Shown piece after piece: positions 1 through 13,803 of a stretch of DNA of 14,168 bases. Made by a program: the position numbers and the translations under genes. Position 1 is the first letter of the stretch. Each line of letters starts with the position of its first letter. This stretch comes from a candidate division WOR-3 bacterium (GTDB lineage Bacteria > Hydrothermota > Hydrothermia > Hydrothermales > Hydrothermaceae), in NCBI GenBank assembly GCA_039803745.1, contig JBDRZD010000010.1, positions 1 through 14,168 on the forward strand. The letters run 5' to 3'. The notes beneath the pieces were generated by a model. The model was not told where the DNA came from and did no database searches. It was given only the letters and a program-made list of their open reading frames with translations.

Positions 1-749
1 CTTACATATCCTTCTAAGAATATTTTATCTTTTTCAAAAATGACTTTTAAAATTTCCCCTCCTTTTGTTTTCACAAGAATCTCTTTATCTTTTATTTTAA
101 ATTTTTCTTTTGCCAAAAAGGCGCTTGCCACAATCCCTGTTCCACATGCTAAAACCTCATCTTCAACCCCCCTTTCATATGTTCTTATAGAAATTAAATT
201 ATCCTTTTCTTTTTCAACAAAATCAACATTTGTCCCCTCTGGTTTAAAATATTCGTGAAATCTTATTTTTTCTCCAATTCTTTTAACATCAATTCTATCT
301 AAGTTTTTTAAAAAAATAACAGTATGGGGAACACCTGAGTTTATAAAACATAATTTGTATTTTATTCCTTGAATTTTAAAGTCAAATTTCGCCTCTCCTT
401 TTATTTTTAAACTTACCCTTACAAGCCCATTTTTATTTAAAATAAATCCTTCATGTTCTCCGTCATCAGAAATAAATCTAAAGTGTTTTTTATTTGTTTT
501 TAAAAAAGCATAGAATAAAAGGCATCTTGCACCATTGGCGCAAAATTCTGCTCTTGATGAATCAGAATTATAATAAATCATTCTAAAATCATAATTTTTT
601 TCTTCTTTATAAAAAAGAACACCATCAGCACCTATCCCAAATTTTCTATCACATAAAGATTTTATTTTTGGAAAAATCTTTTTTAAGTATTTATATTCAA
701 ATATTAAAAAATCGTTTCCTGAACCTGTAAATTTATAAAATCTTACTTT
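1..749 (-). CDS. dapF: Diaminopimelate epimerase (3' end runs off the window; start codon uncertain)
   Basis: Manual translation of the minus frame (absent from the ORF track) is open from 782 to the window edge: KVRFYKFTGSGNDF...LCDRKFGIGADG...YNSDSSRAEFCANGARC...NSGVPH...GTNVDFV...RTYERGVEDEVLACGTG...KTKGGEILKV...FLEGYV. These are the DapF signature blocks and include both catalytic Cys (CxNG, ACGTG). The 5' coordinate is approximate. Confidence 0.93.
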
Positions 750-3226
750 GAAGAACCTCCTACAGGTGCAAACAATTTTTCTTTAATTTTTAGCCATCTT
801 TCAAGTTTTTTTGGTTTTTTCCATTGCTTCTCTAAAATTTCTTTTGTTTTTTCAACTTCTTCTTTTGTAACAGTTTTTAAGAATTCTGCAAGTTCCCTGT
901 TTTTTTGAGCAAACTGTATTCCCTCTGCTGCTGAGAACCATTGTAATTGTAATCTATCACCTCTTATACCCATCCTTTCAATTCTTTTCTTAAGTGCTTC
1001 ATATCTTCTTAATGTATGTCTATTTGCAAAGTTATAATGGCAATCACCAATATGGCAACCTGACATTAAAACTGCGCCTGCGCCTCTATAAAAAGCATAC
1101 ATAACAAAATCAGGTCTTATTCTTGCTGAACACATTGTTCTTATTATTCTTCCAACTGGTGGATATTGAAAACGCGAAACACCTGCAAGATCAGCACCTG
1201 CATAGGAGCACCAGTTACAAGCAAAAATTATTACTTTTTCATGGGGATTTTCTTCAAGTAATGCATCAATCTGGGCATATATTGCCTCATCAGGAAAGTG
1301 TCCCATATCAAGTGCTTCCTGCGGACATTCTGCACCACAGGCACCACATCCTGCACAGGATGCCTCAACAAGTTTTGGTAAACTTCTTTCCTCTTTACTC
1401 CATATCCATGCATGATATGGACAAACATTTGCACACATTCCACAGGATTTACAAATTTCTGTATTCAACTCAGGTGTTAATGCTTCAACTGTTACCTCTC
1501 CCTGTGCCATAAGTATTCCTGCTCTTGCTGCTGAAGCAGAAGCCTGAGTTACAGAATCTTTTATATCCTTTGGTCCTTCTGCACATCCTGCAAGGAATAC
1601 ACCACCTATTGCAGTATCAACAGGTCTTAACTTTGGATGGGCTTCAAGGAAAAAACCATCATCTGTTGTTGCAAGTGCTAATATTTTTTGAAGTTCTTCT
1701 GAATCCTTCCTTGGAATAAGTCCAACTGAGAGAATAGCAAGTTCAACTTCAAGAGTTATCTTTTCTCCAAGAAGTGTATCCTCTGCATAGATTATTAAAT
1801 TTTTCTCCTTTGTCTCTTCAATCTTTGATGGCAAACCTCTTATAAAAACAATCCCTTCTTCTTTTGCTCTTCTGTACAGATCTTCAAAACCTTTACCAAA
1901 TGCCCTTATATCCTGATAAAAGACATATTGCTGAATCCATGGCCAGTGCTCTTTTATCAAAAGTGCATCTTTTATTGTATTCATACAGCAAACATTTGAG
2001 CAATATTTCCCTCCATTTCTCATTTCCCTTGAACCTACACATTGAATAAAAGCAACAGTATTTGGGATCTTCCAGTCTGATGGTCTTATAAGATTCCCTT
2101 CTGTTGGACCTGCTGCATTTATAAGCCTTTCAAATTCCATTGATGTAATAACATTTTCGTATATTCCATATCCATAATCATGATTCTTTGAGGGATCATA
2201 AACATCCATACCCGTTGCAACAATTATTGTTCCAACATCAATTTCAACAATTTCGTCCTTATCGTTAAAATTTATTGCTTTTTTATCACCGCAGGCTTTC
2301 AAACATTCCTCACATACTATTGTTCCTTTTTTAAGATTCAAGCATAAATCTTTATCTATAATGTATTTTGTTGGAACTGCTTGAGCAAAGGGTATATAGA
2401 TTGCTTTTCTTGCTCTTAATCCAACATCAAATTCATTTGGAGCAACTTGAGGACATACCTTTGCACAATCACCACAGGCAGTGCAATCCTTAGTCACATA
2501 TCTTGCCTTTTTCAAAATTTTTACATTAAAATTACCAATATATCCTGAAACCTCTTTGACCTCTGAATTTGTAAATATTTCTATATTTGGATGTCTTCCT
2601 GCTTCAGCCATCTTTGGAGCAAGAATACATATAGAACAGTCCATAGTTGGAAAAGTTTTGTCAATCTGAGCCATCCTTCCACCAATTGTTGGCTCTTTTT
2701 CAACAAGATAAACCTTATAACCAGTCTCTGCAAGGTCAAGAGCAGCCTGAATCCCTGCAACTCCACCACCTATAACAAGTGCCTTCCTTTTTATCTTAAC
2801 CTTTGATTCAATCCTCGGTTTTAAAAAATGTGCTCTTGCAACTGCTGCTTTTACAAGATCTTTTGCCTTTTCGGTTGCTTTCTCTTTTTCATAAAGATGA
2901 ACCCATGTGCATTGATCCCTTATGTTTGCCATTTCAAATAAATACTTGTTTAAGCCTGCCTCTTCTATTGCCTTTCTAAAAATTGGTTCATGTGTTCTTG
3001 GTGTGCATGCAGCGACAACAACTCTGTTTAATTTATATTCTTTTATGTCATTCTTTATCATATCCTGACCAGGATCAGAGCATGTGTATCTATATTCCTT
3101 CGCAACAACAACATTTGGTAAAGTGGAGGCGAATCTTGTTATCTCATACACATCTGCAATTCCACCTATATTTAATCCACAATGGCATATATAAACGCCT
3201 ATTCTTATTTCTTCATTTTCTTTCAT
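743..3226 (-). CDS. hdrA: Heterodisulfide reductase subunit A (FAD, Fe-S) fused to a C-terminal MvhD/FlxD [2Fe-2S] domain
   Basis: 827 aa. N-terminal cluster motifs (IGVYICHCG, CSDPGQ, AACTPRTHE, NIRDQC), Rossmann GGGVAG, KTFPTMDCSICIL, inserted ferredoxin (CTACGDCAKVCP, C..CEECLKAC), QCVGSR..YCSNVCCM, C-terminal ferredoxin (CKSCGMCANVCP, CAGCGACGAECP). From about aa 663, MvhD motifs: FACNWCSYAGADLAG, RTMCSAR, GCHIGDCHY. Confidence 0.96.
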   Translation of the reverse strand: MKENEEIRIGVYICHCGLNIGGIADVYEITRFASTLPNVVVAKEYRYTCSDPGQDMIKNDIKEYKLNRVVVAACTPRTHEPIFRKAIEEAGLNKYLFEMANIRDQCTWVHLYEKEKATEKAKDLVKAAVARAHFLKPRIESKVKIKRKALVIGGGVAGIQAALDLAETGYKVYLVEKEPTIGGRMAQIDKTFPTMDCSICILAPKMAEAGRHPNIEIFTNSEVKEVSGYIGNFNVKILKKARYVTKDCTACGDCAKVCPQVAPNEFDVGLRARKAIYIPFAQAVPTKYIIDKDLCLNLKKGTIVCEECLKACGDKKAINFNDKDEIVEIDVGTIIVATGMDVYDPSKNHDYGYGIYENVITSMEFERLINAAGPTEGNLIRPSDWKIPNTVAFIQCVGSREMRNGGKYCSNVCCMNTIKDALLIKEHWPWIQQYVFYQDIRAFGKGFEDLYRRAKEEGIVFIRGLPSKIEETKEKNLIIYAEDTLLGEKITLEVELAILSVGLIPRKDSEELQKILALATTDDGFFLEAHPKLRPVDTAIGGVFLAGCAEGPKDIKDSVTQASASAARAGILMAQGEVTVEALTPELNTEICKSCGMCANVCPYHAWIWSKEERSLPKLVEASCAGCGACGAECPQEALDMGHFPDEAIYAQIDALLEENPHEKVIIFACNWCSYAGADLAGVSRFQYPPVGRIIRTMCSARIRPDFVMYAFYRGAGAVLMSGCHIGDCHYNFANRHTLRRYEALKKRIERMGIRGDRLQLQWFSAAEGIQFAQKNRELAEFLKTVTKEEVEKTKEILEKQWKKPKKLERWLKIKEKLFAPVGGSSK
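755..761 (-). promoter_or_regulatory. Shine-Dalgarno-like site inside the 3' end of hdrA, ahead of the dapF frame
   Basis: AGGAGGT directly upstream of the codons for the conserved DapF N-terminus (TTC AAA GTA AGA TTT TAT AAA). Confidence 0.6.
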
Positions 3227-4086
3227 CCTACTCGCTCCTTTTTCTTTAAAACATTAAACACTTCAATTTTATGAAAATTAAAACCAATATTTTCTAAATT
3301 TTCACCCATTGCAAGCGCAAGAAGTTCAAAATAATAAAAAATCGGAACTTTATTTTCTCTTTTTGAAAGAATTTGTGCATTTTCAAACTGCATAAAACAT
3401 GAAGGACATATTACAACAATACCATCTGATTCTGAAACTCTGTTAATTTTATTTTCAGCAATTTTTAAAGAAATCTCTTTATCAGTTATAAAATTTGGTA
3501 ATCCACAGCACTCGGTCTTACCATCATATTCAAATACTTCTGCACCAAGAACCTTTACCATTTCCTCAAGAATTTTTGGATTTAAAGGGTCATCTGTTTG
3601 AGCAAATTCTGAAGGTCTTGAAAAATGACATCCAGGATGAACTGCAAGATTTAATCCTTCCAGTGGATTTTTAATTTTCTCTTTTATTTTTTCAATTCCT
3701 ATTTCTTTGTAAAGATAATTTAAAAGATGATAAACTTCTATTTTCCCCTGAAAATTAAGCCCATATTCTTTTAAAAATCCATTTGCCAAACTTTTTTTCT
3801 TTTCGTCCTTTTTTAAAATTTTATTTATTGTATTCAAACTCTCAAAACATCCATTACATAAAGTAACAAGTGGATTACCCTCTTTTTCTGCAATACTTAT
3901 ATTTCTTGAAGCAATTTTAAACCATGTATCTTCATCATACGATTTAACCCATATAGGGTCAGGACAGCAGGTAAATTCAAAAGATTCAACAAATTCAATA
4001 TCAAGATTTTTTAAAACACTAATTGCTGACTTTTCAAATCCTGGGTATCTTCTTTCAATTAAACAACCAGGATAAAGGGTTATCAT
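3223..4086 (-). CDS. hdrB: Heterodisulfide reductase subunit B (two CCG domains)
   Basis: 287 aa with two five-Cys motifs: YPGC-x31-CC-x35-CNGC and HPGC-x39-CC-x32-CPSC. Lies between hdrC and hdrA. Confidence 0.95.
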   Translation of the reverse strand: MITLYPGCLIERRYPGFEKSAISVLKNLDIEFVESFEFTCCPDPIWVKSYDEDTWFKIASRNISIAEKEGNPLVTLCNGCFESLNTINKILKKDEKKKSLANGFLKEYGLNFQGKIEVYHLLNYLYKEIGIEKIKEKIKNPLEGLNLAVHPGCHFSRPSEFAQTDDPLNPKILEEMVKVLGAEVFEYDGKTECCGLPNFITDKEISLKIAENKINRVSESDGIVVICPSCFMQFENAQILSKRENKVPIFYYFELLALAMGENLENIGFNFHKIEVFNVLKKKERVG

Positions 4087-4092
4087 AAATTA

Positions 4093-4100
4093 CCTCCTTA
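4093..4100 (-). promoter_or_regulatory. Shine-Dalgarno site of hdrB overlapping the hdrC stop codon
   Basis: Minus strand reads TAAGGAGG-TAATTT-ATG. Confidence 0.85.
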
Positions 4101-4553
4101 TTTTACAAAAACCTTTTCAATAATCTCTTTTTTATCTTTAATATCCGGATCAATACCAAGTGCCTCTCTCATTTTTCTAATCCTTTCTGTAGCAGATAGA
4201 ATGTGTCCATATTTTTTAATTGCTTCAATCTCCTCAATTACTTCTTTTGGAGCAAATCCTTTTTTAGTTGCTATATTTCTTAAAGCATAAATAAGTTCAA
4301 CAAAATTAACTTTCTGAGGGCAATTTTCTACACATTCATAACATGTTGTGCATCTCCATATATCAGGCTTTTCAATTATTTCAGGAATTCCAATATTTGC
4401 CATTTCAATTATCTTTCTTGGATTGAATTTATCAGGGAATTGCGAGAAAACAGGGCAAAAAGAAGAACATTTTCCACATTGATAACACATATTTAACTTA
4501 TTTTCATGAAAAATTTCTGTTAATTCTTTTTTAAATTGATGTGATACCTTCAT
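4098..4553 (-). CDS. hdrC: Heterodisulfide reductase subunit C (2x[4Fe-4S])
   Basis: 151 aa with CYQCGKCSSFCP, NPRKII and IWRCTTCYECVENCP; directly upstream of hdrB. Confidence 0.94.
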   Translation of the reverse strand: MKVSHQFKKELTEIFHENKLNMCYQCGKCSSFCPVFSQFPDKFNPRKIIEMANIGIPEIIEKPDIWRCTTCYECVENCPQKVNFVELIYALRNIATKKGFAPKEVIEEIEAIKKYGHILSATERIRKMREALGIDPDIKDKKEIIEKVFVK

Positions 4554-4559
4554 ATATCC

Positions 4560-5111
4560 TCACTTTTTAAATTTTTTGGCGTAATTAATTCCGACTTCAA
4601 AAGCCTTCAAATTTAAATCTATATAATCTTTTTTAACTGTTTCAGAGATTGCCTTTTTAAGTGAATCCGGTGAAACAATTTTTGTTAGTTCGCATAAAGC
4701 ACCAAGCATTATAACATTTGCAGTAAGTTTATTTCCAACTTCTTTTTCAGCGAGTCTTGTTGCAGGGATTGGATAAGTTTTTATATTTTCAGGGAGGTCA
4801 TAAATTTCAACAAGGTCTTCATCATATATGAGCATTCCATTTTCTTTTATTTTTTTTACATAAACAGAATAGGCTTCCTTTGACATACAAACAAGGACAT
4901 CAGGATTTGTAACTTTTGGATAATCAACAAGTTCATCAGGATTTTCTGAGATTACAACTCCTGATGCACTTGCTCCACCTCTTGCCTCAGGTCCATAACT
5001 CTGTGTCATTGATGAATTTCTTTTTTCACAAACTGTGATTGCATATCCTAAAATATAACTTGCTAAAACTATTCCCTGTCCGCCAAACCCTGCAAATTGT
5101 ATTTCTCTCAT
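4560..5111 (-). CDS. korC: 2-oxoacid:ferredoxin oxidoreductase gamma subunit
   Basis: EIQFAGFGGQG, QSYGPEARGGAS and ANVIMLGA motifs; follows the beta subunit with an ATGA overlap. Confidence 0.93.
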   Translation of the reverse strand: MREIQFAGFGGQGIVLASYILGYAITVCEKRNSSMTQSYGPEARGGASASGVVISENPDELVDYPKVTNPDVLVCMSKEAYSVYVKKIKENGMLIYDEDLVEIYDLPENIKTYPIPATRLAEKEVGNKLTANVIMLGALCELTKIVSPDSLKKAISETVKKDYIDLNLKAFEVGINYAKKFKK

Positions 5112-5953
5112 TTTTTAATCCCCTTTTCTTCTAAAAATTTTTGATAAATTTCAAGATAAGAAGGTTTTTCTATTTCAACGAATTCACCAACAACAATTTT
5201 ACCTCTAAAAGAAAGTTCTGCTTCTTTAGGGTCAATTCCATTTCTTATAACTGAATTCTCTTTATAATATCTCATTTCATCAATTGCATCGCCTATTTTA
5301 TTTGGTCTTCCAAATCCTGTTGGACAGGGAGAAATAACCTCTATAAAATTAAATCCCTTTCTTGAGAGTGCTTTTTTGATTGATTGCCTCAACTGGTATG
5401 CATGTAAAACAGTCCACCTTGCAACAAATGTTGCACCGCTTGAAGCAGCAAGATGGGGGAGATTAAAAGGATACTCAAAGTTTCCATAAGGTGTTGTTGT
5501 GGTGATTGCTTCAAGTGGTGTAGTGGGTCCGAATTGTCCTCCTGTCATTCCATAATTGAAATTATTTACACATATTACCGTGATATCCATATTTCTTCTT
5601 GCAGCATGGATTAAATGATTTCCACCAATTGCTGCAATATCTCCATCACCAGAAAAAACAATTACATTCAGGTCAGGTCTTGCAATTTTTAAACCTGTTG
5701 CAAATGCAATTGGTCTTCCATGGGTTGTATGGTATGAATCCACTCTTACATATCCTGCCACTCTTCCTGAACAACCAATTCCTGAAACTATTGCAATTTT
5801 TTCTCTTGGTATCTCAAGTTCCTTTATTGCATATAAAAGGGATGACATGGCTATTCCAAGACCGCATCCTGAGCACCATATATGGGGCAATCTTTCCTTT
5901 CTGAAATATTCTTCTAAAGGATGAACTTTTTCAATTAATTTTGTTTCTTCCAT
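5108..5953 (-). CDS. korB: 2-oxoacid:ferredoxin oxidoreductase beta subunit (TPP-binding)
   Basis: HIWCSGCG, SGIGCS, HTTHGR, TPP motif GDGD...NN, YGMTGGQ, SPCP. Confidence 0.94.
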   Translation of the reverse strand: MEETKLIEKVHPLEEYFRKERLPHIWCSGCGLGIAMSSLLYAIKELEIPREKIAIVSGIGCSGRVAGYVRVDSYHTTHGRPIAFATGLKIARPDLNVIVFSGDGDIAAIGGNHLIHAARRNMDITVICVNNFNYGMTGGQFGPTTPLEAITTTTPYGNFEYPFNLPHLAASSGATFVARWTVLHAYQLRQSIKKALSRKGFNFIEVISPCPTGFGRPNKIGDAIDEMRYYKENSVIRNGIDPKEAELSFRGKIVVGEFVEIEKPSYLEIYQKFLEEKGIKK

Positions 5954-7083
5954 ATTCCCTCCAAAATTTCATCAGGAGTGATTAACTCCCCACCAAGTTT
6001 ATGAACCCCTATTACAGGGACACTATTTACCCTTGCTCTCTCTACTTCTCTTCTTACCTGCCCCTGATTTATCTCTGCTACAACAAATTTTTCAATTTTT
6101 TTAGAAATTTCAGCAATTCTTTCTTCAGGGAAAGGCCATATTGTTATTAACCTGAAAAGACCTGCTTTAATTCCTTTCTTTCTTGCTTCCCTGACTGCCT
6201 TTAATGCTGCTCTTGCAGTTATTCCAAAGGAAACAACAACAATTTCTGCATCATCAAGCATAACTTCTTCGTATTCAATTATATCTTTTCTATTCTTTTG
6301 AATTTTATCAATCAGTCTTCTAACAAGTCTTTCATGGGCTTCACCTGTTATATCCGGATAACCTCTTTCATCATGAGTTAATCCTGTCATATGAACAAAA
6401 TAGCCTTCTCCTGCAATTGCCATAGGGGGAACAAGATCTTCATCAGGTATATAAGGCCAGTATTCTTCGGGTGAAACATTTGGTTTTTTTCTATCTATAA
6501 TCTCTATTTTTTCTTCAGGTGGAATAACAACTTTCTCTCTCAAATGTCCAACCGCTTCATCAGAAAGTATTGTTACAGGAACCCTATATTTTTCTGAAAG
6601 ATTGAATGCCTTTATTGTTAAATCAAACATCTCCTGGCAGGAGTTTGGAGCAAGGGCTATTATCTCATAATCTCCATGGGAGCCCCATCTTGCCTGCATT
6701 ACATCCCCTTGCCCTACAAGTGTTGGAAGTCCTGTTGAGGGTGCTCCTCTTTGAACATTTACAATTACACAGGGAACTTCAAGCATAACAGCAAGTCCTA
6801 TTCCTTCTACCATTAAAGAATAACCAGGACCAGAAGTTGCTGTCATTGATTTTACACCTCCACAGGAAGCACCAATTAAAGCAGTAATTGAAGCAATCTC
6901 ATCTTCCATCTGAATATAAATTCCTCCAAAAAGAGGAAGTCTTCTTGAAATCCATTCCGCAATCTCTGTTGAAGGTGTTATTGGATATCCAGCAAAGAAT
7001 CTGCAGCCTGCCGCAATTGCACCTTCTGCGCATGCATGATCCCCTAACATATAATGGGTGCCTGTCAAAATTTTTGCCTTCAT
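5935..7083 (-). CDS. korA: 2-oxoacid:ferredoxin oxidoreductase alpha subunit (likely 2-oxoglutarate type)
   Basis: GYPITPSTE, QMEDEIAS, TATSGPG, QRGAPSTGLPT, RWGSHGD, TGLTHDERG; no fused gamma domain. Substrate specificity is inferred from family resemblance only. Confidence 0.93.
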   Translation of the reverse strand: MKAKILTGTHYMLGDHACAEGAIAAGCRFFAGYPITPSTEIAEWISRRLPLFGGIYIQMEDEIASITALIGASCGGVKSMTATSGPGYSLMVEGIGLAVMLEVPCVIVNVQRGAPSTGLPTLVGQGDVMQARWGSHGDYEIIALAPNSCQEMFDLTIKAFNLSEKYRVPVTILSDEAVGHLREKVVIPPEEKIEIIDRKKPNVSPEEYWPYIPDEDLVPPMAIAGEGYFVHMTGLTHDERGYPDITGEAHERLVRRLIDKIQKNRKDIIEYEEVMLDDAEIVVVSFGITARAALKAVREARKKGIKAGLFRLITIWPFPEERIAEISKKIEKFVVAEINQGQVRREVERARVNSVPVIGVHKLGGELITPDEILEGIWKKQN

Positions 7084-7361
7084 TTTACAAGCTCCTTTTC
7101 AACAATTATAGCAAATTCAGGGCAAACCCTTTCACAAAATCCGCATCCAGTGCATTTTTCAGGATATTTTGTATAAGGTGGATGATAACCCTTTGAATTT
7201 AACCTATCTTTTCTTTCAAGAACACCACCCGGACAAAATTCTATACAAAAAGAACAGCCCTTACAGAGTTCCTCATTTATATGGACAATTCCCCTTTTCC
7301 TCTCTAACTTATCAAGATCTAAAGGCTTTCTCCAGAATCCTTTTGAGTTAGTTTTTTCCAT
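7080..7361 (-). CDS. korD: 2-oxoacid:ferredoxin oxidoreductase delta subunit (2x[4Fe-4S] ferredoxin)
   Basis: CKGCSFCIEFCP, NSKGYHPP, CTGCGFCERVCPEFAI; first gene of the operon, with AGGAGG 5 nt upstream. Confidence 0.92.
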   Translation of the reverse strand: MEKTNSKGFWRKPLDLDKLERKRGIVHINEELCKGCSFCIEFCPGGVLERKDRLNSKGYHPPYTKYPEKCTGCGFCERVCPEFAIIVEKELVK

Positions 7362-7388: not shown

Positions 7389-7418
7389 ATTATAATAACT
7401 TTTTATTGAAAAAATCAA
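7389..7418 (-). promoter_or_regulatory. Putative sigma70-type promoter of the kor-hdr operon
   Basis: TTGATT (7418-7413), 18 nt spacer, TATAAT (7394-7389); about 27 nt upstream of the korD ATG. The AT-rich background lowers specificity. Confidence 0.55.
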
Positions 7419-7441: not shown

Positions 7442-7873
7442 ATGAAAAAAATAATATTCCTTTTCTTTTTTTTAATTTCCTGTAATCATAAAAAAGAGGC
7501 AGATAAATATTTCAATAAGGCTTATGAATTTTTATATCTCAAAAATGCTGATAGTGCCTTATTTTATTTAAATAAGGGTCTTGAATTAAATCCTGAAAAG
7601 GCAGAAGGATACAACATGAGAGGGACTGCATATCATCTTCTATATGAAGCAAAAAAAGATACTTTTTATATTTTAAAAGAAATTGAAGATTATAAAAGAG
7701 CAATGAAGATTGATTCTACAATGTGGGAGCCTTATATAAATTTAGGTGTGGCACTTTATATTTTTGGTAAAAAGAAAGAAGCTGTTCCTTATTTGAAAAA
7801 AGGATTAAAATTAAATCCAGGATATGGCGCAAGGAAAAAAGTTGAGGAAATGATAAAAGAAGGTGAAAAATGA
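7442..7873 (+). CDS. TPR-repeat lipoprotein
   Basis: MKKIIFLFFFLISC signal peptide with lipobox-like LISC; TPR-like helices (YFNKA..ALFYLNKGLELNP, GYNMRGTAY..YKRAMKIDS, YINLGVALY..AVPYLKKGLKLNP). Confidence 0.85.
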   Translation: MKKIIFLFFFLISCNHKKEADKYFNKAYEFLYLKNADSALFYLNKGLELNPEKAEGYNMRGTAYHLLYEAKKDTFYILKEIEDYKRAMKIDSTMWEPYINLGVALYIFGKKKEAVPYLKKGLKLNPGYGARKKVEEMIKEGEK

Positions 7874-9747
7874 AAATTTTGATAATCTGGTCTTTTTTTC
7901 AAATATTACCAGAAAATATAAAGGAAGAATTTTTTAAAAAAGAAATTAAGAATCCGTTAATTGAAAGAATAGACACTACCTTTGATATCCTTCATTATTT
8001 TATTGATCTTTATCCAATTCACGAGACTCATTTTCTTAAAGGTAAAAATAAAATAAGATTTAAATCCCTTATCTCTTCACTTGAAACTTTAAGAATAAAT
8101 TTAAAGGGAATGAATATAGATAGTGTTTTAAGAAATGGAATCCCTCAAAATTATATACATACTGATTCTACATTAAAAATAATTCTTTCTCCACCTTTGG
8201 TATCAAACGATTCAACAGAAGTTGATGTTTTTTATTCAGGTATTCCATCAGGTGGTCTTTATTTTAAGGACAGTATAATATATGCAGATAATGAGCCTTT
8301 TAGGACAAAAAGATGGATTCCTCTTTATGACCTTCCTTCTGACAAAGCCTTTTTAGATATGAGCATAAAAGTTCCGACAGGATACAAAGTAATAGCAAAT
8401 GGTTTGAAAACAGATTCTATTTTGCAGGATAGTGTAATAATTTATAAATTTAAAGAAAAATATAAAATAGCAAATTATTTAATTGTTTTTGCTGCTTCCC
8501 CTTATTTTGTTAATGTTAAGGATAGTTTTATTTATGGAAATTATAATATGCCGATATATAATTTTGTTTTTCCTCAGGATACAAACCTTGCTAAAAATAA
8601 ATTTCAAAGAATCTCTTGGATGCTTGAATACTTTTCGAATACTTTTGGAATATATCCTTTTATAGAAGAAAAATATGCCCATGTTCATGCTCCTATAGGT
8701 GGGGCAATGGAAAATCAAACAAATACATTTATAAATGTTCATCTTAATTGGGGAGGTGATTGGGATTGGGTAGTATCTCATGAACTTTCACATCACTGGT
8801 TTGGGGATCTTGTAACATGTAAAACATGGAAAGACATATGGTTAAATGAGGGTTTTGCTTCATATTGTGAGGCTTTATGGTTTGGTGAAAGAGATGGAGA
8901 GAGTGCATATCATAATTATATGAATGGAATGATGCAATATTATATTGAAAATGAGCCATATCCTCCTTTCCCTATTTATGACCCACCAATTCTATTTCAT
9001 TTTGCAGTTGTTTACAGAAAAGGGGCATCAGTTTTACACATGCTAAGACATGTAATAGGTGATTCAATATTTTTTGGAGCAATTAGAAATTACTTGCAGA
9101 ATTTTGCCTATTCTTCTGCAACAACAGAAGATTTAAGAAATGTATTTGAAATAACAAGCGGAAAAAATTTATGGTGGTTTTTTAATGAATGGGTATATTT
9201 ACCAGGGCATCCTGAATATAAATTTTTCTGGAATTATGATTCAATATCAATTGATTCTTTCAAGATTAATCTATTTATCTTTCAAGTCCAATCTCATAAT
9301 TACAATGTCCCAACTTATAAGATGCCAATTGATATATGGATATTATTTCCTCAAGGAGATACCTTTAAAACATTTGTATGGGATTCTCTTGATTCCCAAT
9401 CTTTTGAAATCTATGTAAACAAAAAGCCAGTTGACCTTTTCTTTGACCCTGAGAACTGGATTCTTAAAGAAGTTGAAGAAATTAAAGTTAAGGAAAATTA
9501 TTTTTCAAAGAAAAATGTGTTTAAAATTAGTTATATTGATGGAGAAATTTTGTTAAAATATTCAGGTGAAAAAGATATAAAAACAAAATTAAAAATATTT
9601 GATTTATCTGGAAGGAATTTGATTACCAAAGATTTATTTTTAACATCTAATAAATCACTTTATAAATTAAGTCTAAAACTTTCAAAGGGAATATATTTTA
9701 TAAAATTATATCCTTTCTTAGATACAAAGATTTATGTAATAAAATGA
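7870..9747 (+). CDS. M1-family zinc aminopeptidase with C-terminal T9SS/Por-like sorting domain
   Basis: GGAMEN (8698-8715), HELSH-x18-E (HELSHHWFGDLVT...WLNEGFA), catalytic Tyr in VYRKG, FDPENWIL. The tail KIFDLSGR...LSKGIYFIKL resembles type A T9SS CTDs. Confidence 0.92.
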   Translation: MKILIIWSFFQILPENIKEEFFKKEIKNPLIERIDTTFDILHYFIDLYPIHETHFLKGKNKIRFKSLISSLETLRINLKGMNIDSVLRNGIPQNYIHTDSTLKIILSPPLVSNDSTEVDVFYSGIPSGGLYFKDSIIYADNEPFRTKRWIPLYDLPSDKAFLDMSIKVPTGYKVIANGLKTDSILQDSVIIYKFKEKYKIANYLIVFAASPYFVNVKDSFIYGNYNMPIYNFVFPQDTNLAKNKFQRISWMLEYFSNTFGIYPFIEEKYAHVHAPIGGAMENQTNTFINVHLNWGGDWDWVVSHELSHHWFGDLVTCKTWKDIWLNEGFASYCEALWFGERDGESAYHNYMNGMMQYYIENEPYPPFPIYDPPILFHFAVVYRKGASVLHMLRHVIGDSIFFGAIRNYLQNFAYSSATTEDLRNVFEITSGKNLWWFFNEWVYLPGHPEYKFFWNYDSISIDSFKINLFIFQVQSHNYNVPTYKMPIDIWILFPQGDTFKTFVWDSLDSQSFEIYVNKKPVDLFFDPENWILKEVEEIKVKENYFSKKNVFKISYIDGEILLKYSGEKDIKTKLKIFDLSGRNLITKDLFLTSNKSLYKLSLKLSKGIYFIKLYPFLDTKIYVIK

Positions 9748-10472
9748 CGGAAATAGATAAGTTAAGGAAAGAAATATTTTCTTTGAATTCCCTTCTTGTT
9801 TTAACAGGTGCAGGAGTTTCGCAGGAAAGTGGTATTCCAACATTTAGAGGGAAAAATGGGTTATGGAGGAATTATGATGCAACACAACTTGCTACCCCTT
9901 ATGCTTTTGAAAATAATCCAAAACTTGTATGGGAATGGTACAACTGGAGAAGGGAGATAATTTTAAAGGCAAAACCAAATCCTGCTCATTATGGAATTAA
10001 AAAACTTGAGGAAATTATTTCTGATTTTTTACTTGTTACCCAAAATATAGATGATTTACACAGGGAGGCTGGTTCAAATAAAATTCTTGAAATCCATGGA
10101 AATATTTTCAGAACAAGATGTACAGGATGCGGTAAAAAAGAATTTGAGAAAAAAATATTTAAAAATGAAGAGTTGCCTCCAAAATGTAAAGATTGCAATA
10201 ATCTTTTAAGACCTGATGTTGTATGGTTTGGTGAGCCTATTGATGAAGAAATTTTTGCATCTATTTTAGAATTTGCTTTAAAATGTGAGGCAATCCTTGT
10301 TGTTGGCACATCAGCAGTAGTTTATCCTGCTGCTTCAATTCCTTATTATGTAAAGAAAAATGGAGGAAAAATTTTTGAAATAAATTTAGAGCCAACACAA
10401 ATTTCAGAGATTTCTGATATCAGTATTTTTGGAAAAGCAGGGGAGATTTTTGAGGAATTGATCACTCTATAA
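9744..10472 (+). CDS. cobB: NAD-dependent protein deacylase (class III sirtuin)
   Basis: GAGVSQESGIPTFRG, QNIDDLH, EIHG, Zn site CTGC...CKDC, RPDVVWFGE, GTSAVVYPAA; WYNWRR gives the YxxR motif. Confidence 0.95.
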   Translation: MTEIDKLRKEIFSLNSLLVLTGAGVSQESGIPTFRGKNGLWRNYDATQLATPYAFENNPKLVWEWYNWRREIILKAKPNPAHYGIKKLEEIISDFLLVTQNIDDLHREAGSNKILEIHGNIFRTRCTGCGKKEFEKKIFKNEELPPKCKDCNNLLRPDVVWFGEPIDEEIFASILEFALKCEAILVVGTSAVVYPAASIPYYVKKNGGKIFEINLEPTQISEISDISIFGKAGEIFEELITL

Positions 10473-13400
10473 ATTTTAATACTTGCAAAAATTTTTCAAG
10501 TTCAATGTTTTTTAAATCTTTAAGGAATTGATTTAAAAGAACTTCAAACCTATTTTCAAAATTTTTGTCAATTAAAGATAAGAAGTATAGAGCCCTTAAA
10601 AGGAGCCTATAGTTTTTAATCTCCTGAGCAATTTCTATACCTTTTATAAGTAAATCCTTTTTTTCATTTTCATTTTTTTTAAATAAACTTTCAATTACAT
10701 ATATTTCACCCTCTATGTCTTTACTTTTTAAATCTCTGTTAATTTCTTTTGCTTTTTCAAAATATTCCAAACTTTTATTTATTTCATTTAATATAAGATA
10801 AAGTTTGCATAAACCTATTAATGCTCTAAATTTTAAAAACGGTATATTAACATCTTCAAGTATTTCCAAAGATTTTTTATAAAATTCAAAAGATTTTTCT
10901 GGCTGGATAGTTAAAAAAATATCTCCAAAATTTATTAAACAGACAATTTGCATATCTTTTATATTATTTTCTTGAGATATTTTTAAAGATTCTTCATTTA
11001 GCTCTTTTGCTTTTTCTGTATTTCCCATGAAAAGATAAACTCTACTTTTCCCATAAAGAGCGTTTGCCATCTCGTTTGGTAAATGAAGTTCTTTTGCTAT
11101 TTGTATAGATTTATCTGTTATATCAAGTGCTTCTTCATAAAGACATTGCTTTATATATATTGTTCTCATATAATTGTATATAAGAGCAATATTTTTCTTT
11201 TTTTGAAAAATTGTAAATATATCAATTGCTTTTTTAAAATATTCAATCGCTTTCGGAGTTTCTCCTTTCGCAAAGTAATAATATCCAATATTTTGGTAGA
11301 TTATACCTATATAGTGTTTACTCTTTATAGATTCTGCTAATGATAAAGCCCTTTTTTGATATTCTAAACCCTCATCGTATTTACCAATTTTATAATAAGC
11401 ATAGCCAAGATTTAAAAAATTTAAAATAATTTTGTCTTTAACATCATGTTTTTCGTTTTCTTTAAGTGCTTCTTTATAATGATAGATTGCCTTATCAATT
11501 TCTTCTTTATAATAATATATTCCTCCAAGAGCATTTAAAACAGTTGCCTTAAAAGGGTCATGTTCTTTTAAAATATTTAAAACTTTAAAATAATATTTTT
11601 CTGCCTCTTCCAGTTTCCTTAATACGTGATAAGCCTCGCCAAGAAGATACAGAATTTCACACTTATTTTTATAATCTAATTTTTCTATTTCAATTTCTTT
11701 TTCAATTATTTCAATAACTTTTTTATATTCTCCTTTATATCCACCAATAATTTTAAGATATTCAATTAAAGCATTTATATTTTTTTTATTTTCCCATAGA
11801 TCCATTAAAATTTCTTCACTTTCTTTTATCTTTCCTGTAATTGAAAGATATTTACCCATTTCTATTTTTGCATTTTCTTTCTCTTTTTCATCTTCTGATA
11901 ATTCGATTATCTTTTTTAAATAATTTATCCCTTCTTCGTATAAAAAATTTTTAATAGATTTTTGAAAAGCAATTTTATAATAAAAAATGCTCTTTTCTTT
12001 TTTATTTGCTTTTTCATAATTATAGGCAATTAATGAGCAAAATTTTTCTCTTAAACTTTCATTTGATTCTATTTTTTCTGCAACAAAATTGTGTAAATTT
12101 TCTCTTGTTCTTTTCAAAAGGCTTTCAAGAATTATTTCTCTATAACGAGGAGATTTAAACCTGTAAATTTTATCATCTTCTTCTTGTTCAATTATTCCTG
12201 CCGAAATTAATTTTCTAATCTTTTGATGCAATTTTATTTTCTTTTCTTCTTTTATATAAGAAATTAATTCAATATCAAATTTTTCTCCCAAACAGGCTAA
12301 AATAGCTAATAAATTTTTTTCTTCCTCTTCTAATTTATCAAGGACCGCCCTTCCAAATTCTAAAAAAATTGATGGAATTTTAAACAAAGATAATTCTTTT
12401 TTAAGAAAGGGTAATATATTCACTGTGTAGAGGGGATTACCAAAAGTATTTTGATAAATTTTTAAGTATATTTCTTCATCTAATTCTTCAACATTTAAGG
12501 CACTTTTAATAAATTTTCTCATTTCCTCATAAGAAAGAGGTTCTAATTTTATTTCAAAAAAATTTTTAAAATCTTTAAAATTTTCATAGTAGGATGTTCT
12601 TACAGAAAGAATAAATAAAAATGGTATATCTTTTATTGTTTCAGAGAGATACTTTATAAGTCCGATAGAAAAATTATCTAAGAGGTGTGCATTTTCAACA
12701 ATAAAAACACAGAAATTTTTCTTACATAAAAATTCGAGAAATAATGAAAAAGCATAACACAATATATTTTTAATTTCTTCTTCTTTTTCAAATTTTATAT
12801 TAACTTTATCAGGGAAAAGGGCAAAATCAAGATATTCTCCTGCTTCTCTTTTTATTTCATCTTCTTTCATAAATTCTCGTAATGGATAAAACCTTTTCAG
12901 AAAACCTGAAAATCCTTTCAAGATGGAAAAAGATGAAGGGTCGGGATAAATCCAGTATATTTCGCATTCATCTTTTATAATTTTTTCAAATTCTTTTAAG
13001 AATCTTGTTTTACCTATCCCAATATCTCCTGTTAAAAAAAGAAAAACACTTTTTTCTTTTGCCTCATTATACTTTTCTTTTATTATTTCCATTTCTTTTT
13101 CTCTATTTATGAATATATTTTCAAGGAATATTTCATCATATTTTTCTATTTTTTTATAACCTTTAACTTCGTAAATTTTTATCTCTTCTTTTTTACCCTT
13201 TAATTTAACCTTTGGTAATTCTATAAATTCAAAAATTCTTTTAGCAAAATTATAAGTGTTTTCAGATACCCATATTTTTCCGGGTTCACATATTTCTTCA
13301 ATTCTCTCTGCAATGTTTACAGCATCACCCATTGCTGTATAATCTCCTTCTCTTTTTTTACCAATATATCCTGTAACAACTTCTCCTGTGTTAATTCCTA

Positions 13401-13803
13401 TTCTCAGACTTAAATTGACTCCTTTAGTTATTTCAGTAATTTCTTTATTAAACTCCTTTATTTTTTCCTGCATCTCGTAAGCTGCTTTAACTGCTCTTTC
13501 AGCGTCATCCCCATAGGAAACAGGAGCACCAAATAAAGCCATTATACAATCTCCTATATATTTATCTATATATCCCCGATTATTTTCTATTATCTCAGTC
13601 ATTCTTGAAAAAATTTTATCCATTATTTCTTTTACTTCTTCTGGAGATAATTTTTCTGATAGGGAAGTGAAACCTTTTAAATCAGCAAATAAAATACTAA
13701 CAACCCTTTTTTCTTCTTCAATTTTAAGTTTTAATTCTGCACCGCAATTTTCACAATAAATATTTTTTTCATCATTTTCATATCCACATTTTTTACATTT
13801 CAT
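10462..13803 (-). CDS. Zn-ribbon / class III adenylate cyclase / STAND-type ATPase / TPR multidomain signalling protein
   Basis: N-terminal CKKC..CENC; cyclase motifs LFADLKGFT, KYIGDCIMALFG, RIGINTG, YTAMGDAVNIAER; Walker A GDIGIGKT; Walker B-like FIVENAH; GNPLY (STAND GxP); multiple C-terminal TPR repeats. Confidence 0.93.
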   Translation of the reverse strand: MKCKKCGYENDEKNIYCENCGAELKLKIEEEKRVVSILFADLKGFTSLSEKLSPEEVKEIMDKIFSRMTEIIENNRGYIDKYIGDCIMALFGAPVSYGDDAERAVKAAYEMQEKIKEFNKEITEITKGVNLSLRIGINTGEVVTGYIGKKREGDYTAMGDAVNIAERIEEICEPGKIWVSENTYNFAKRIFEFIELPKVKLKGKKEEIKIYEVKGYKKIEKYDEIFLENIFINREKEMEIIKEKYNEAKEKSVFLFLTGDIGIGKTRFLKEFEKIIKDECEIYWIYPDPSSFSILKGFSGFLKRFYPLREFMKEDEIKREAGEYLDFALFPDKVNIKFEKEEEIKNILCYAFSLFLEFLCKKNFCVFIVENAHLLDNFSIGLIKYLSETIKDIPFLFILSVRTSYYENFKDFKNFFEIKLEPLSYEEMRKFIKSALNVEELDEEIYLKIYQNTFGNPLYTVNILPFLKKELSLFKIPSIFLEFGRAVLDKLEEEEKNLLAILACLGEKFDIELISYIKEEKKIKLHQKIRKLISAGIIEQEEDDKIYRFKSPRYREIILESLLKRTRENLHNFVAEKIESNESLREKFCSLIAYNYEKANKKEKSIFYYKIAFQKSIKNFLYEEGINYLKKIIELSEDEKEKENAKIEMGKYLSITGKIKESEEILMDLWENKKNINALIEYLKIIGGYKGEYKKVIEIIEKEIEIEKLDYKNKCEILYLLGEAYHVLRKLEEAEKYYFKVLNILKEHDPFKATVLNALGGIYYYKEEIDKAIYHYKEALKENEKHDVKDKIILNFLNLGYAYYKIGKYDEGLEYQKRALSLAESIKSKHYIGIIYQNIGYYYFAKGETPKAIEYFKKAIDIFTIFQKKKNIALIYNYMRTIYIKQCLYEEALDITDKSIQIAKELHLPNEMANALYGKSRVYLFMGNTEKAKELNEESLKISQENNIKDMQIVCLINFGDIFLTIQPEKSFEFYKKSLEILEDVNIPFLKFRALIGLCKLYLILNEINKSLEYFEKAKEINRDLKSKDIEGEIYVIESLFKKNENEKKDLLIKGIEIAQEIKNYRLLLRALYFLSLIDKNFENRFEVLLNQFLKDLKNIELEKFLQVLKFIE

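Follow-up and report, generated by a model that had tools for sequence, protein, structure and literature searches.

A korDABC-hdrCBA gene cluster of a WOR-3 bacterium and a candidate KorD peptide for docking on HdrA

The stretch of DNA considered here (the window; 14,168 nucleotides) is the start of contig JBDRZD010000010.1 (assembly GCA_039803745.1) from a candidate division WOR-3 bacterium of the Hydrothermia, whose genome of 1.67 Mb has a GC content of 29.6% and is 93% complete. It carries seven genes in the order korDABC-hdrCBA(mvhD), which encode a four-subunit 2-oxoacid:ferredoxin oxidoreductase (Kor), likely specific for 2-oxoglutarate to judge from its sequence (2-oxoglutarate:ferredoxin oxidoreductase, OGOR), and a heterodisulfide reductase (Hdr) module in which HdrA is fused to MvhD. 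In the sequences compared, a peptide at the N-terminus of KorD and a lengthened spacer in HdrA covary with the partnership of the two enzymes, and these are put forward as a new, specific and mutable interface. A physical complex of Kor with HdrA is probable, and its operation in the oxidative direction, if the complex exists, is somewhat favoured. The complete reading preferred here, a wired Kor-HdrA2BC complex that runs oxidatively and delivers electrons to a disulfide at HdrB, is proposed tentatively.

The KorD peptide, the HdrA spacer and their predicted docking

KorD has approximately 24 additional N-terminal residues bearing a W-R-x-P-L-D motif, and its best NCBIfam matches, OGOR_delta and OorD, both below cut-off, begin only at residue 25-26. 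Among the best 80 KorA loci in GTDB genomes, the motif is present in 46 of the 49 Hdr-linked KorD proteins and in none of the 11 unlinked ones. P13 and D15 are invariant in an alignment of 27 Hdr-linked KorD sequences. The unlinked KorD proteins of the 80-locus set all come from a single Smithellaceae clade, which is placed with strong support inside linked Syntrophales, and thus count as one loss of the peptide. Around other WOR-3 KorA genes, 20 additional stretches were inspected: a KorD-type ferredoxin is found without the extension in 11 and with it in three, and six show none. Where two Kor operons stand back to back (L058, L138), the peptide occurs only in the Hdr-linked one and not in the adjacent paralogue.

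The lengthened spacer of the ferredoxin domain (C295-C305 in the window) is common to Kor-linked HdrA proteins. A long spacer is also present in a divergent HdrA of 650 residues located next to kor (L083, L075, L096, L140); in a mosaic test, the ferredoxin domains of these kor-adjacent proteins are 49-58% identical to that of the window, a range overlapping the 43-53% of unlinked HdrA. The HdrA of L142 adjoins korD yet has no such spacer. In four genomes in which an unlinked KorD retains the peptide (G070, G074, G106, G130), a spacer-type HdrA-MvhD is encoded elsewhere, behind etfBA.

Clusters of the form etfB-etfA-hdrA-mvhD with the Kor-type spacer are conserved in one WOR-3 family (f15; L271, L272, L273, L274, L281), the genomes of which have unlinked kor genes and, in four of the five checked, a KorD that keeps the peptide. 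An Etf-HdrA-Kor system acting in trans is possible in this family.

KorD and HdrA-MvhD, each supplied as an alignment of 27 rows, were subjected to complex prediction together with three controls, the peptide and the spacer having been noted beforehand. The KorD-HdrA pair scored 0.72 and the best control 0.00; as many as 116 of 157 solved pairs, but only 2 of 215 mismatched ones, attained this mark. Such counts calibrate predictions made with our own alignments only roughly. At least 90% of contacts are common to the runs, and the pLDDT of the partner is at least 79. The predicted interface places residues 5-16, 42-45 and 71-75 of KorD on residues 259-272, 296-307 and scattered positions in 346-385 of HdrA; KorD P13, L14 and D15 are the best-placed residues, and the peptide provides the contacts of lowest error. 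Modelling of this pair, which the initial annotation had proposed, docks the KorD peptide on the inserted ferredoxin-like domain of HdrA and supports, though it does not demonstrate, binding of the two proteins.

The same genes might instead form a co-regulated operon without a stable complex, in which Kor reduces free ferredoxin and HdrA2BC is one sink among others. The packing of the genes is unremarkable for the host genome, Kor proteins of the same subfamily are encoded with no Hdr next to them in Smithellaceae and in several genomes of WOR-3, and structure predictors may pass homologues of solved pairs. However, co-regulation alone would not predict a peptide that tracks the partner, a matching spacer in HdrA and a structure prediction that joins both, and this explanation is considered the least probable of those weighed here.

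Composition and distribution of the cluster

The seven open reading frames (ORFs) all lie on the minus strand, begin with ATG and are each preceded by a purine-rich stretch (Table 1). An ORF check bore out the positions given in the initial annotation for the genes and for their six junctions (in nt, overlaps negative: korD-korA -4, korA-korB -19, korB-korC -4, korC-hdrC +6, hdrC-hdrB +11, hdrB-hdrA -4). KorA passes the NCBIfam model PRK08659 (585 bits against a cut-off of 411), which is neutral as to substrate, and its nearest PDB chains are 1yd7, 8ys5 and 6n2n; the NCBIfam models named for OGOR score below cut-off on the Kor subunits. The site of KorB Arg64 is occupied by arginine in 103 of 105 loci, and this residue, like Arg63 of 6n2n, is one that we take to have a role in binding 2-oxoglutarate.

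HdrC scores 110 bits with TIGR03290, below the methanogen cut-off of 160, and HdrB 270 bits with TIGR03288, below the methanogen cut-off of 345 (PDB 8rvu_b, E 4e-62). The CCG cysteines of HdrB are C8/C40/C41/C77/C80 and C153/C193/C194/C227/C230. HdrA passes NF040770 (HdrA2; 1185 against 1100), and the fused MvhD corresponds to PF02662 at residues 665-784. In alignments, K419 of HdrA corresponds to K409 of 5odc, an FAD-contacting residue (PMC6405883; statements on papers cited by PMC number refer to the accessible excerpts of these papers), and C197/C200 to C202/C205 of 8rvu, equivalents of a conserved HdrA pair (PMC13580544); with the five MvhD cysteines also present, the FAD lysine, the cysteine pair and the full set of cluster ligands are all retained. 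Such a residue set is necessary, not sufficient, for bifurcation by HdrA (PMC5861303). No donor module (MvhAG, FdhAB, FlxABC, HdrL or MetFV) is present in the window or in 13 related cassettes.

At one or both of the sites of C197 and C200, the hdrA genes of L133-L144, L058, L098, L106 and L114 have an in-frame TGA, which probably encodes selenocysteine; the Hydrothermia, Bathyarchaeia and Thermoplasmata copies have cysteine there.

Table 1. Features of the window and the basis of their assignment
Feature	Coordinates	Strand	Basis
dapF, diaminopimelate epimerase, passenger overlapping the hdrA stop	3..746	-	TIGR00652 above cut-off
hdrA fused to mvhD (HdrA2 type, cysteine and not selenocysteine form)	743..3226	-	NF040770, PF02662
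hdrA codons 244-322, inserted ferredoxin-like domain with lengthened C295-C305 spacer, predicted KorD landing site	2261..2497	-	Spacer comparison and predicted complex
hdrB, disulfide-reductase-type subunit, both CCG motifs complete	3223..4086	-	Motif check, TIGR03288, PDB 8rvu_b
hdrC, 2x[4Fe-4S] relay subunit	4098..4553	-	Two ferredoxin motifs; best match TIGR03290
korC, gamma subunit	4560..5111	-	PF01558; TIGR02175 above cut-off
korB, thiamine-pyrophosphate-binding beta subunit	5108..5953	-	Family match below curated cut-off; Arg64 aligns with Arg63 of 6n2n_B
korA, alpha subunit, YPITP at 33-37, Arg112	5935..7083	-	PRK08659
korD, 93-residue 2x[4Fe-4S] delta subunit with N-terminal extension	7080..7361	-	Two CxxCxxCxxxC motifs
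korD codons 9-15, F-W-R-K-P-L-D peptide, predicted HdrA-docking motif	7317..7337	-	Linkage covariation and predicted complex
Sigma70-like promoter candidate before korD, in the divergent intergenic region	7389..7418	-	10 of 12 consensus positions; site count at chance level

HdrB matches were obtained in 22 of 41 genomes, and 20 stretches were taken from 16 of these 22. Thirteen stretches contain korDABC-hdrCB-hdrA/mvhD in the same order with differing flanks (12 whole; that of G027 ends at korC with its contig), and the other seven contain Mvh- or HdrL-type Hdr clusters without kor. The korC-hdrC junction is a 4-nt overlap in several of the related cassettes. The carriers belong to three families, across which KorA and HdrA are 70-80% identical and HdrB down to 43-50%; among named relatives, KorA is most similar to that of Ca. 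Hydrothermus pacificus (87%), followed by that of a Hydrothermales bacterium (77%). One genome, G010 (8% contaminated), has two copies of the cassette and a broken hdrA frame. Two genomes of the same genus, G001 (93%) and G003 (67%), gave no match to the cassette; the flanking genes are matchless there too, and a clean deletion of the cassette is therefore not claimed. In a survey of 151 genomes of the phylum, which are related to each other (best 150 of 290 KorA and best 105 of 414 HdrA matches), window-type HdrA-MvhD, delimited at 940 bits by a gap in the score list chosen after viewing, lies within 13 kb of a same-strand KorA in 31 of 34 cases, own genome included, as against 9 of 71 for other HdrA. 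The HdrB of family f2 (L041-L045, L172, L173) is only about 260 residues long, with some 26 residues fewer between the CCG domains and all cysteines kept.

Beyond the phylum, 52 of the 80 KorA loci have a same-strand HdrA or HdrL, 16 are too short and 12 are unlinked. The linked loci come from Bathyarchaeia (25), Thermoplasmatota, Chloroflexota, Thermodesulfobacteriota, Bacteroidota, Spirochaetota and Zixiibacteriota. Starting from HdrA (best 80 loci in metagenomes), kor genes were found at 62 loci; 15 were too short, three had none, and the order of the window was repeated in three. The constant core is Kor with HdrA-MvhD, and the gene order and accessory arms differ among loci: HdrCB (5 of the 52), HdrD, HdrL, GltD-like flavoproteins or an HdrC::GltD chimera, the last in Bathyarchaeia and one Marinifilaceae genome. 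HdrL stands beside Kor in related clusters such as L058, L061, L133 and L134, and none is present in the window. The adjacency of Kor and Hdr, for which the initial annotation had suggested a gene-neighbourhood survey, is consequently not unique to this genome and recurs across phyla in changed gene orders. This recurrence and the predicted docking of KorD favour the further proposal of that annotation that OGOR is the dedicated low-potential partner of HdrA.

Trees were computed without L033, L053 and L054, which are near-duplicates of other rows. The 28 Kor-linked HdrA-MvhD sequences group together in a single clade, with no more than four HdrA sequences as outgroup. The Hydrothermia copies stand apart from other WOR-3 copies for both HdrA (p-AU 4e-40) and KorAB (p-AU 5e-4), which suggests that the kor-hdr set was transferred as a unit; because the group tested was chosen after earlier trees had been seen, these tests go no further than such a suggestion. 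The KorA and HdrA trees resemble each other (r 0.72; 19 of 39 splits in common; 42 rows), and this congruence was discarded as a sign of co-evolution, as any co-inherited genes would show as much.

Two different alpha/beta pairs stand in tandem in the Kor clusters L133, L136, L139, L140, L141, L144 and L256, which suggests a heteromeric oxidoreductase. In L140 and L083, kor and hdr lie beside genes for a fumarate-reductase-like flavoprotein and an Fe-S protein, an arrangement resembling the tfr-hdr-kor cluster of tubeworm symbionts.

Little can be concluded from the packing of the genes. The initial annotation had regarded the overlaps and short gaps as indicative of an operon; a genome-wide control based on a simple ORF caller counted 1162 co-directional gene pairs, of which 636 (55%) overlap and 766 have a gap no larger than 6 nt, and it placed 226 of 1512 genes in runs of at least seven. 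Tight packing is weak evidence in a genome in which over half of such pairs overlap, and that of the cluster is not beyond chance. The accompanying claim that there is no room for a promoter holds for the intergenic gaps and not for the interior of korC, where a sigma70-like site (4737-4708; 10 of 12 positions) lies 155 nt before hdrC and scores the same as the site before korD. Since 32 sigma70-like sites were found as against 29.0 +/- 4.7 in shuffled sequences, neither site counts as evidence, and the promoter and terminator scan, at chance level, was set aside. Four of six listed RNA runs with little or no word share with the window were also examined. Two (X3, X4) placed 0 reads on it. A third (X5) gave six read pairs (12 reads), which fell on korD/korA, hdrB/hdrC and hdrA with every first mate on the plus strand; none fell on neighbouring genes or across the korC-hdrC junction. 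Contigs of the fourth (X1), 90-98% alike, also cover the M1 peptidase gene and may thus be of DNA origin. The reads were too thin to serve as evidence of co-transcription and were not used.

Direction of electron flow

In the proposed complex, the N-terminal peptide of KorD would tether Kor to the low-potential ferredoxin-like domain of HdrA-MvhD, and KorD would stand in for free ferredoxin. 2-Oxoglutarate and CoA would be converted to succinyl-CoA and CO2, with ATP then formed through SucCD, and the electrons would pass from KorD to the ferredoxin domain of HdrA, FAD, HdrC, HdrB and finally the disulfide. The retained MvhD cluster might allow bifurcation or confurcation if a mid-potential partner docks in trans. 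The inserted domain of this HdrA is presumably the counterpart of the low-potential exit domain of methanogen HdrA. In methanogens, low-potential electrons leave HdrA through its ferredoxin-like domain and reach Fmd by way of MvhB (PMC13580544), and ferredoxin:heterodisulfide reductase activity has been measured for Methanosarcina HdrA2B2C2 (PMC5296606).

The host genome has genes for citrate synthase (present in all 14 genomes searched), an isocitrate dehydrogenase-like protein, SucC/SucD, SdhA, glutamate dehydrogenase, GcvH and peptidases. No ATP-citrate lyase was found, as a PF00549 search of the host genome returned only SucC and SucD, and no Rnf was found in that genome. In G008, a genome (96% complete) that has the cassette, the searches made turned up neither MvhA nor a second MvhD nor a molybdopterin enzyme; a complex able to work by itself fits 2-oxoglutarate oxidation with disulfide reduction. 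Taken as a whole, the genome context leans towards an oxidative direction of Kor.

Several points weigh against an oxidative tethered complex, in addition to the rough calibration of the complex score. The best PDB matches of the KorD profile are polyferredoxins of the MvhB/FwdF type, and complexes of HdrA with MvhB or FwdF have been solved (PMC13580544), so that part of the prediction may reflect this likeness. The strict motif is missed by three linked KorD proteins, and six unlinked ones retain the peptide (L145, L148, L150, L256, L265, L266); G085 has no HdrA among the matches listed, and the single G110 copy checked has no spacer. The 12 unlinked KorA loci form one clade and represent one event. 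No acceptor was found, as searches of the 93%-complete host genome for DsrC and FrhB gave no match, and the delivery of very low-potential electrons to a disulfide would waste energy unless the thiol is usefully re-oxidised. The host genome also has a second, two-subunit KorAB and Mvh and Fdh Hdr clusters elsewhere, which could supply a donor in trans. The korC-hdrC junction is spanned by no read of the four thin RNA runs. Finally, the analogous cluster of tubeworm symbionts has been read reductively (PMC6315080, PMC11636981).

The same tethered complex could run reductively, with electrons of H2, formate or NAD(P)H entering at MvhD by way of a partner encoded at another locus, FAD bifurcating, the low-potential electron going directly to KorD for the carboxylation of succinyl-CoA and the high-potential one passing to a disulfide at HdrB, in the manner of the CO2-fixing Hdr-Fmd supercomplex of methanogens. 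KorD is predicted to bind the inserted domain, presumably the low-potential exit of HdrA. That exit gives MvhB its low-potential electrons (PMC13580544). The FAD lysine, C197/C200 and all MvhD cysteines are retained, MvhA occurs in 9 of the 12 cassette genomes tested, the host has FdhA, the most distant versions mostly add an NAD(P)H flavoprotein, and the tubeworm-symbiont cluster lies among genes of the reductive tricarboxylic acid (rTCA) cycle (PMC6315080, PMC11636981). However, the operon has no donor gene, the Mvh and Fdh genes are accompanied by an HdrA and MvhD of their own, G008 has neither donor in the searches made, and the gene content, with no ATP-citrate lyase found, looks heterotrophic. 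The reductive direction is regarded as rather unlikely.

In a third arrangement, low-potential electrons from KorD and high-potential electrons from a thiol, with HdrB reversed, would merge at FAD and leave through MvhD as H2, formate or NAD(P)H, which would help a fermenter to oxidise thiols. Such confurcation would account for the retention of MvhD and agrees with a conserved three-port layout that has an exchangeable high-potential arm (HdrCB in the window, HdrD or the HdrC::GltD chimera elsewhere); GcvH, a lipoyl carrier, is encoded in the host genome. It nevertheless requires an acceptor for MvhD, none of which appeared in the G008 searches, and GcvH lies in an ordinary glycine-cleavage context, with no thiol source found. 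This arrangement is improbable, and oxidative flow to a disulfide at HdrB remains the reading preferred here.

Other redox genes of the host genome include hdrCBA-mvhD with an unassigned gene for 222 residues and fdhA (C2:31112-37306, L166), and a QmoC-like gene with hdrL (C64:3881-7787, L169), which probably runs on into mvhDGA across a contig break (C76, L031). A fusion of 556 residues joins a GltD-like NAD(P) flavoprotein to a PorD-type ferredoxin (C23:23708-25378, L170:2708-4378) and stands where a POR/VOR-like operon would otherwise have its delta subunit; matches of the same kind, with 554-624 residues, occur in 12 of 14 genomes searched. Two complex-I-like sets are also present (C9:13566-20068 and C49:7536-11870), the second with a degenerate-looking NuoB and a molybdopterin-domain neighbour.

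Neighbouring genes, known systems and significance

The gene downstream of hdrA, dapF, belongs to the lysine pathway and overlaps the hdrA stop though unrelated to kor-hdr; it follows hdrA only in G002, G004, G010 and L171 and is outside the conserved cassette. No ATG, GTG or TTG is found near its conserved N-terminus (window 740-746, minus strand; L033, L034, L035). The frame opens at GTA in the window and G002, at ATA in G010 and at GTA followed by ATA in G004, apparently shares 4 nt with the hdrA stop and is preceded in the window by AGGAGG 9 nt upstream. A non-canonical start coupled to the termination of hdrA is likely from these sequences. On the other side, the window encodes an M1 aminopeptidase with a weak C-terminal domain of the type IX secretion system type (7870-9747; TIGR04183, E 2e-5), behind a TPR protein, and a protein of 1113 residues with zinc-ribbon, adenylate/guanylate cyclase, AAA and TPR parts (10462-13803, minus strand), the gene for which overlaps that of a Sir2 deacylase tail to tail.

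The initial annotation knew of no characterised Kor-Hdr complex. This statement stands insofar as neither a purified complex nor a docking motif appeared in the literature searched, which mostly excludes subscription journals; the lack of precedent that it implied does not, since a proposal of 2019 already envisaged, in tubeworm symbionts and in Thioflavicoccus mobilis, a KorABCD complex with Hdr-Flx and direct electron shuttling to OGOR (PMC6315080). The korABCD-hdrABC-flxABCD-tfrAB cluster of the symbionts shows operon-like co-expression (PMC11636981). No Kor-Hdr linkage appears in the accessible parts of PMC9534799, PMC9723716, PMC6085437, PMC13768988, PMC12542636 and PMC12307629, and the WOR-3 survey among them treats korABCD and hdrABC separately (PMC12542636).

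The window shares with the rTCA cluster of the symbionts and Thioflavicoccus the clustering of hdrA and hdrBC with the genes of a four-subunit Kor, but has the order korDABC-hdrCBA, an HdrA fused to MvhD and a host that appears heterotrophic, and has no Flx NADH arm, Tfr or acl genes. The cassette is the smallest form of the proposed Kor-Hdr system. In Syntrophobacter fumaroxidans, HdrA-type genes are likewise clustered with a 2-oxoacid:ferredoxin oxidoreductase (the cluster named HdrAL/POR, genes Sfum_0012-0018), an uncharacterised set undetected in the proteome reported (PMC5947623); that cluster, likened here by description and not by sequence, has HdrL, an NAD(P)H-binding module, which the window does not. 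Methanosarcina acetivorans HdrA2B2C2 resembles the Hdr part in its HdrA-MvhD fusion passing NF040770, its HdrB and HdrC, and the absence of a hydrogenase from the operon. Ferredoxin:disulfide and bifurcating activities, with F420H2 and CoM-S-S-CoB, have been measured for it (PMC5296606), whereas an FrhB-type domain was not found in the host genome here and the accessible text describes no Kor partner there. In the Mvh/Fdh-Hdr-Fmd complexes of methanogens (PDB 5odc, 7bkb, 8rvu, 9sw6), a ferredoxin-type subunit sits on the ferredoxin-like domain of HdrA, as is predicted here, and HdrA is wired directly to a CO2-handling enzyme (PMC13580544); in the window, however, the partner is a thiamine-dependent oxidoreductase with a delta subunit of 93 residues, not a polyferredoxin with Fmd, and there is no donor arm. 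The Kor part is similar to Helicobacter pylori OorDABC (PDB 8ys5; 1yd7) in subunit set, gene order, YPITP and the arginine of the beta subunit, but OorD aligns with the KorD profile from position 22 onwards only and has no N-terminal extension.

A broader proposal, which is more speculative than the oxidative complex itself, is that these clusters represent a widespread class of Hdr supercomplexes in which the W-R-x-P-L-D peptide of KorD occupies the low-potential port of HdrA, and bifurcation drives or exploits C-C carboxylation without free ferredoxin. Such a class would be a TCA-cycle counterpart of Hdr-Fmd, the Hydrothermia form being the smallest and free of selenium, and the peptide and spacer would mark its members even where kor and hdr are unlinked. 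Small size, cysteine in place of the in-frame TGA of many relatives and the absence of additional modules make the form in the window a practical choice for expression and cryo-electron microscopy.

If the tethered oxidative reading is true, the TCA cycle of these organisms is wired directly to a disulfide, which would point to a disulfide acceptor in WOR-3 bacteria; if the reductive direction holds, the cassette would be a compact route for driving CO2 fixation by OGOR. The role of HdrABC in non-methanogens is a long-standing question, and for one large clade of bacterial and archaeal HdrA the present analysis offers a testable answer: if the proposal is correct, a 2-oxoacid oxidoreductase serves as its low-potential partner and is held in place by a deletable peptide of seven residues.

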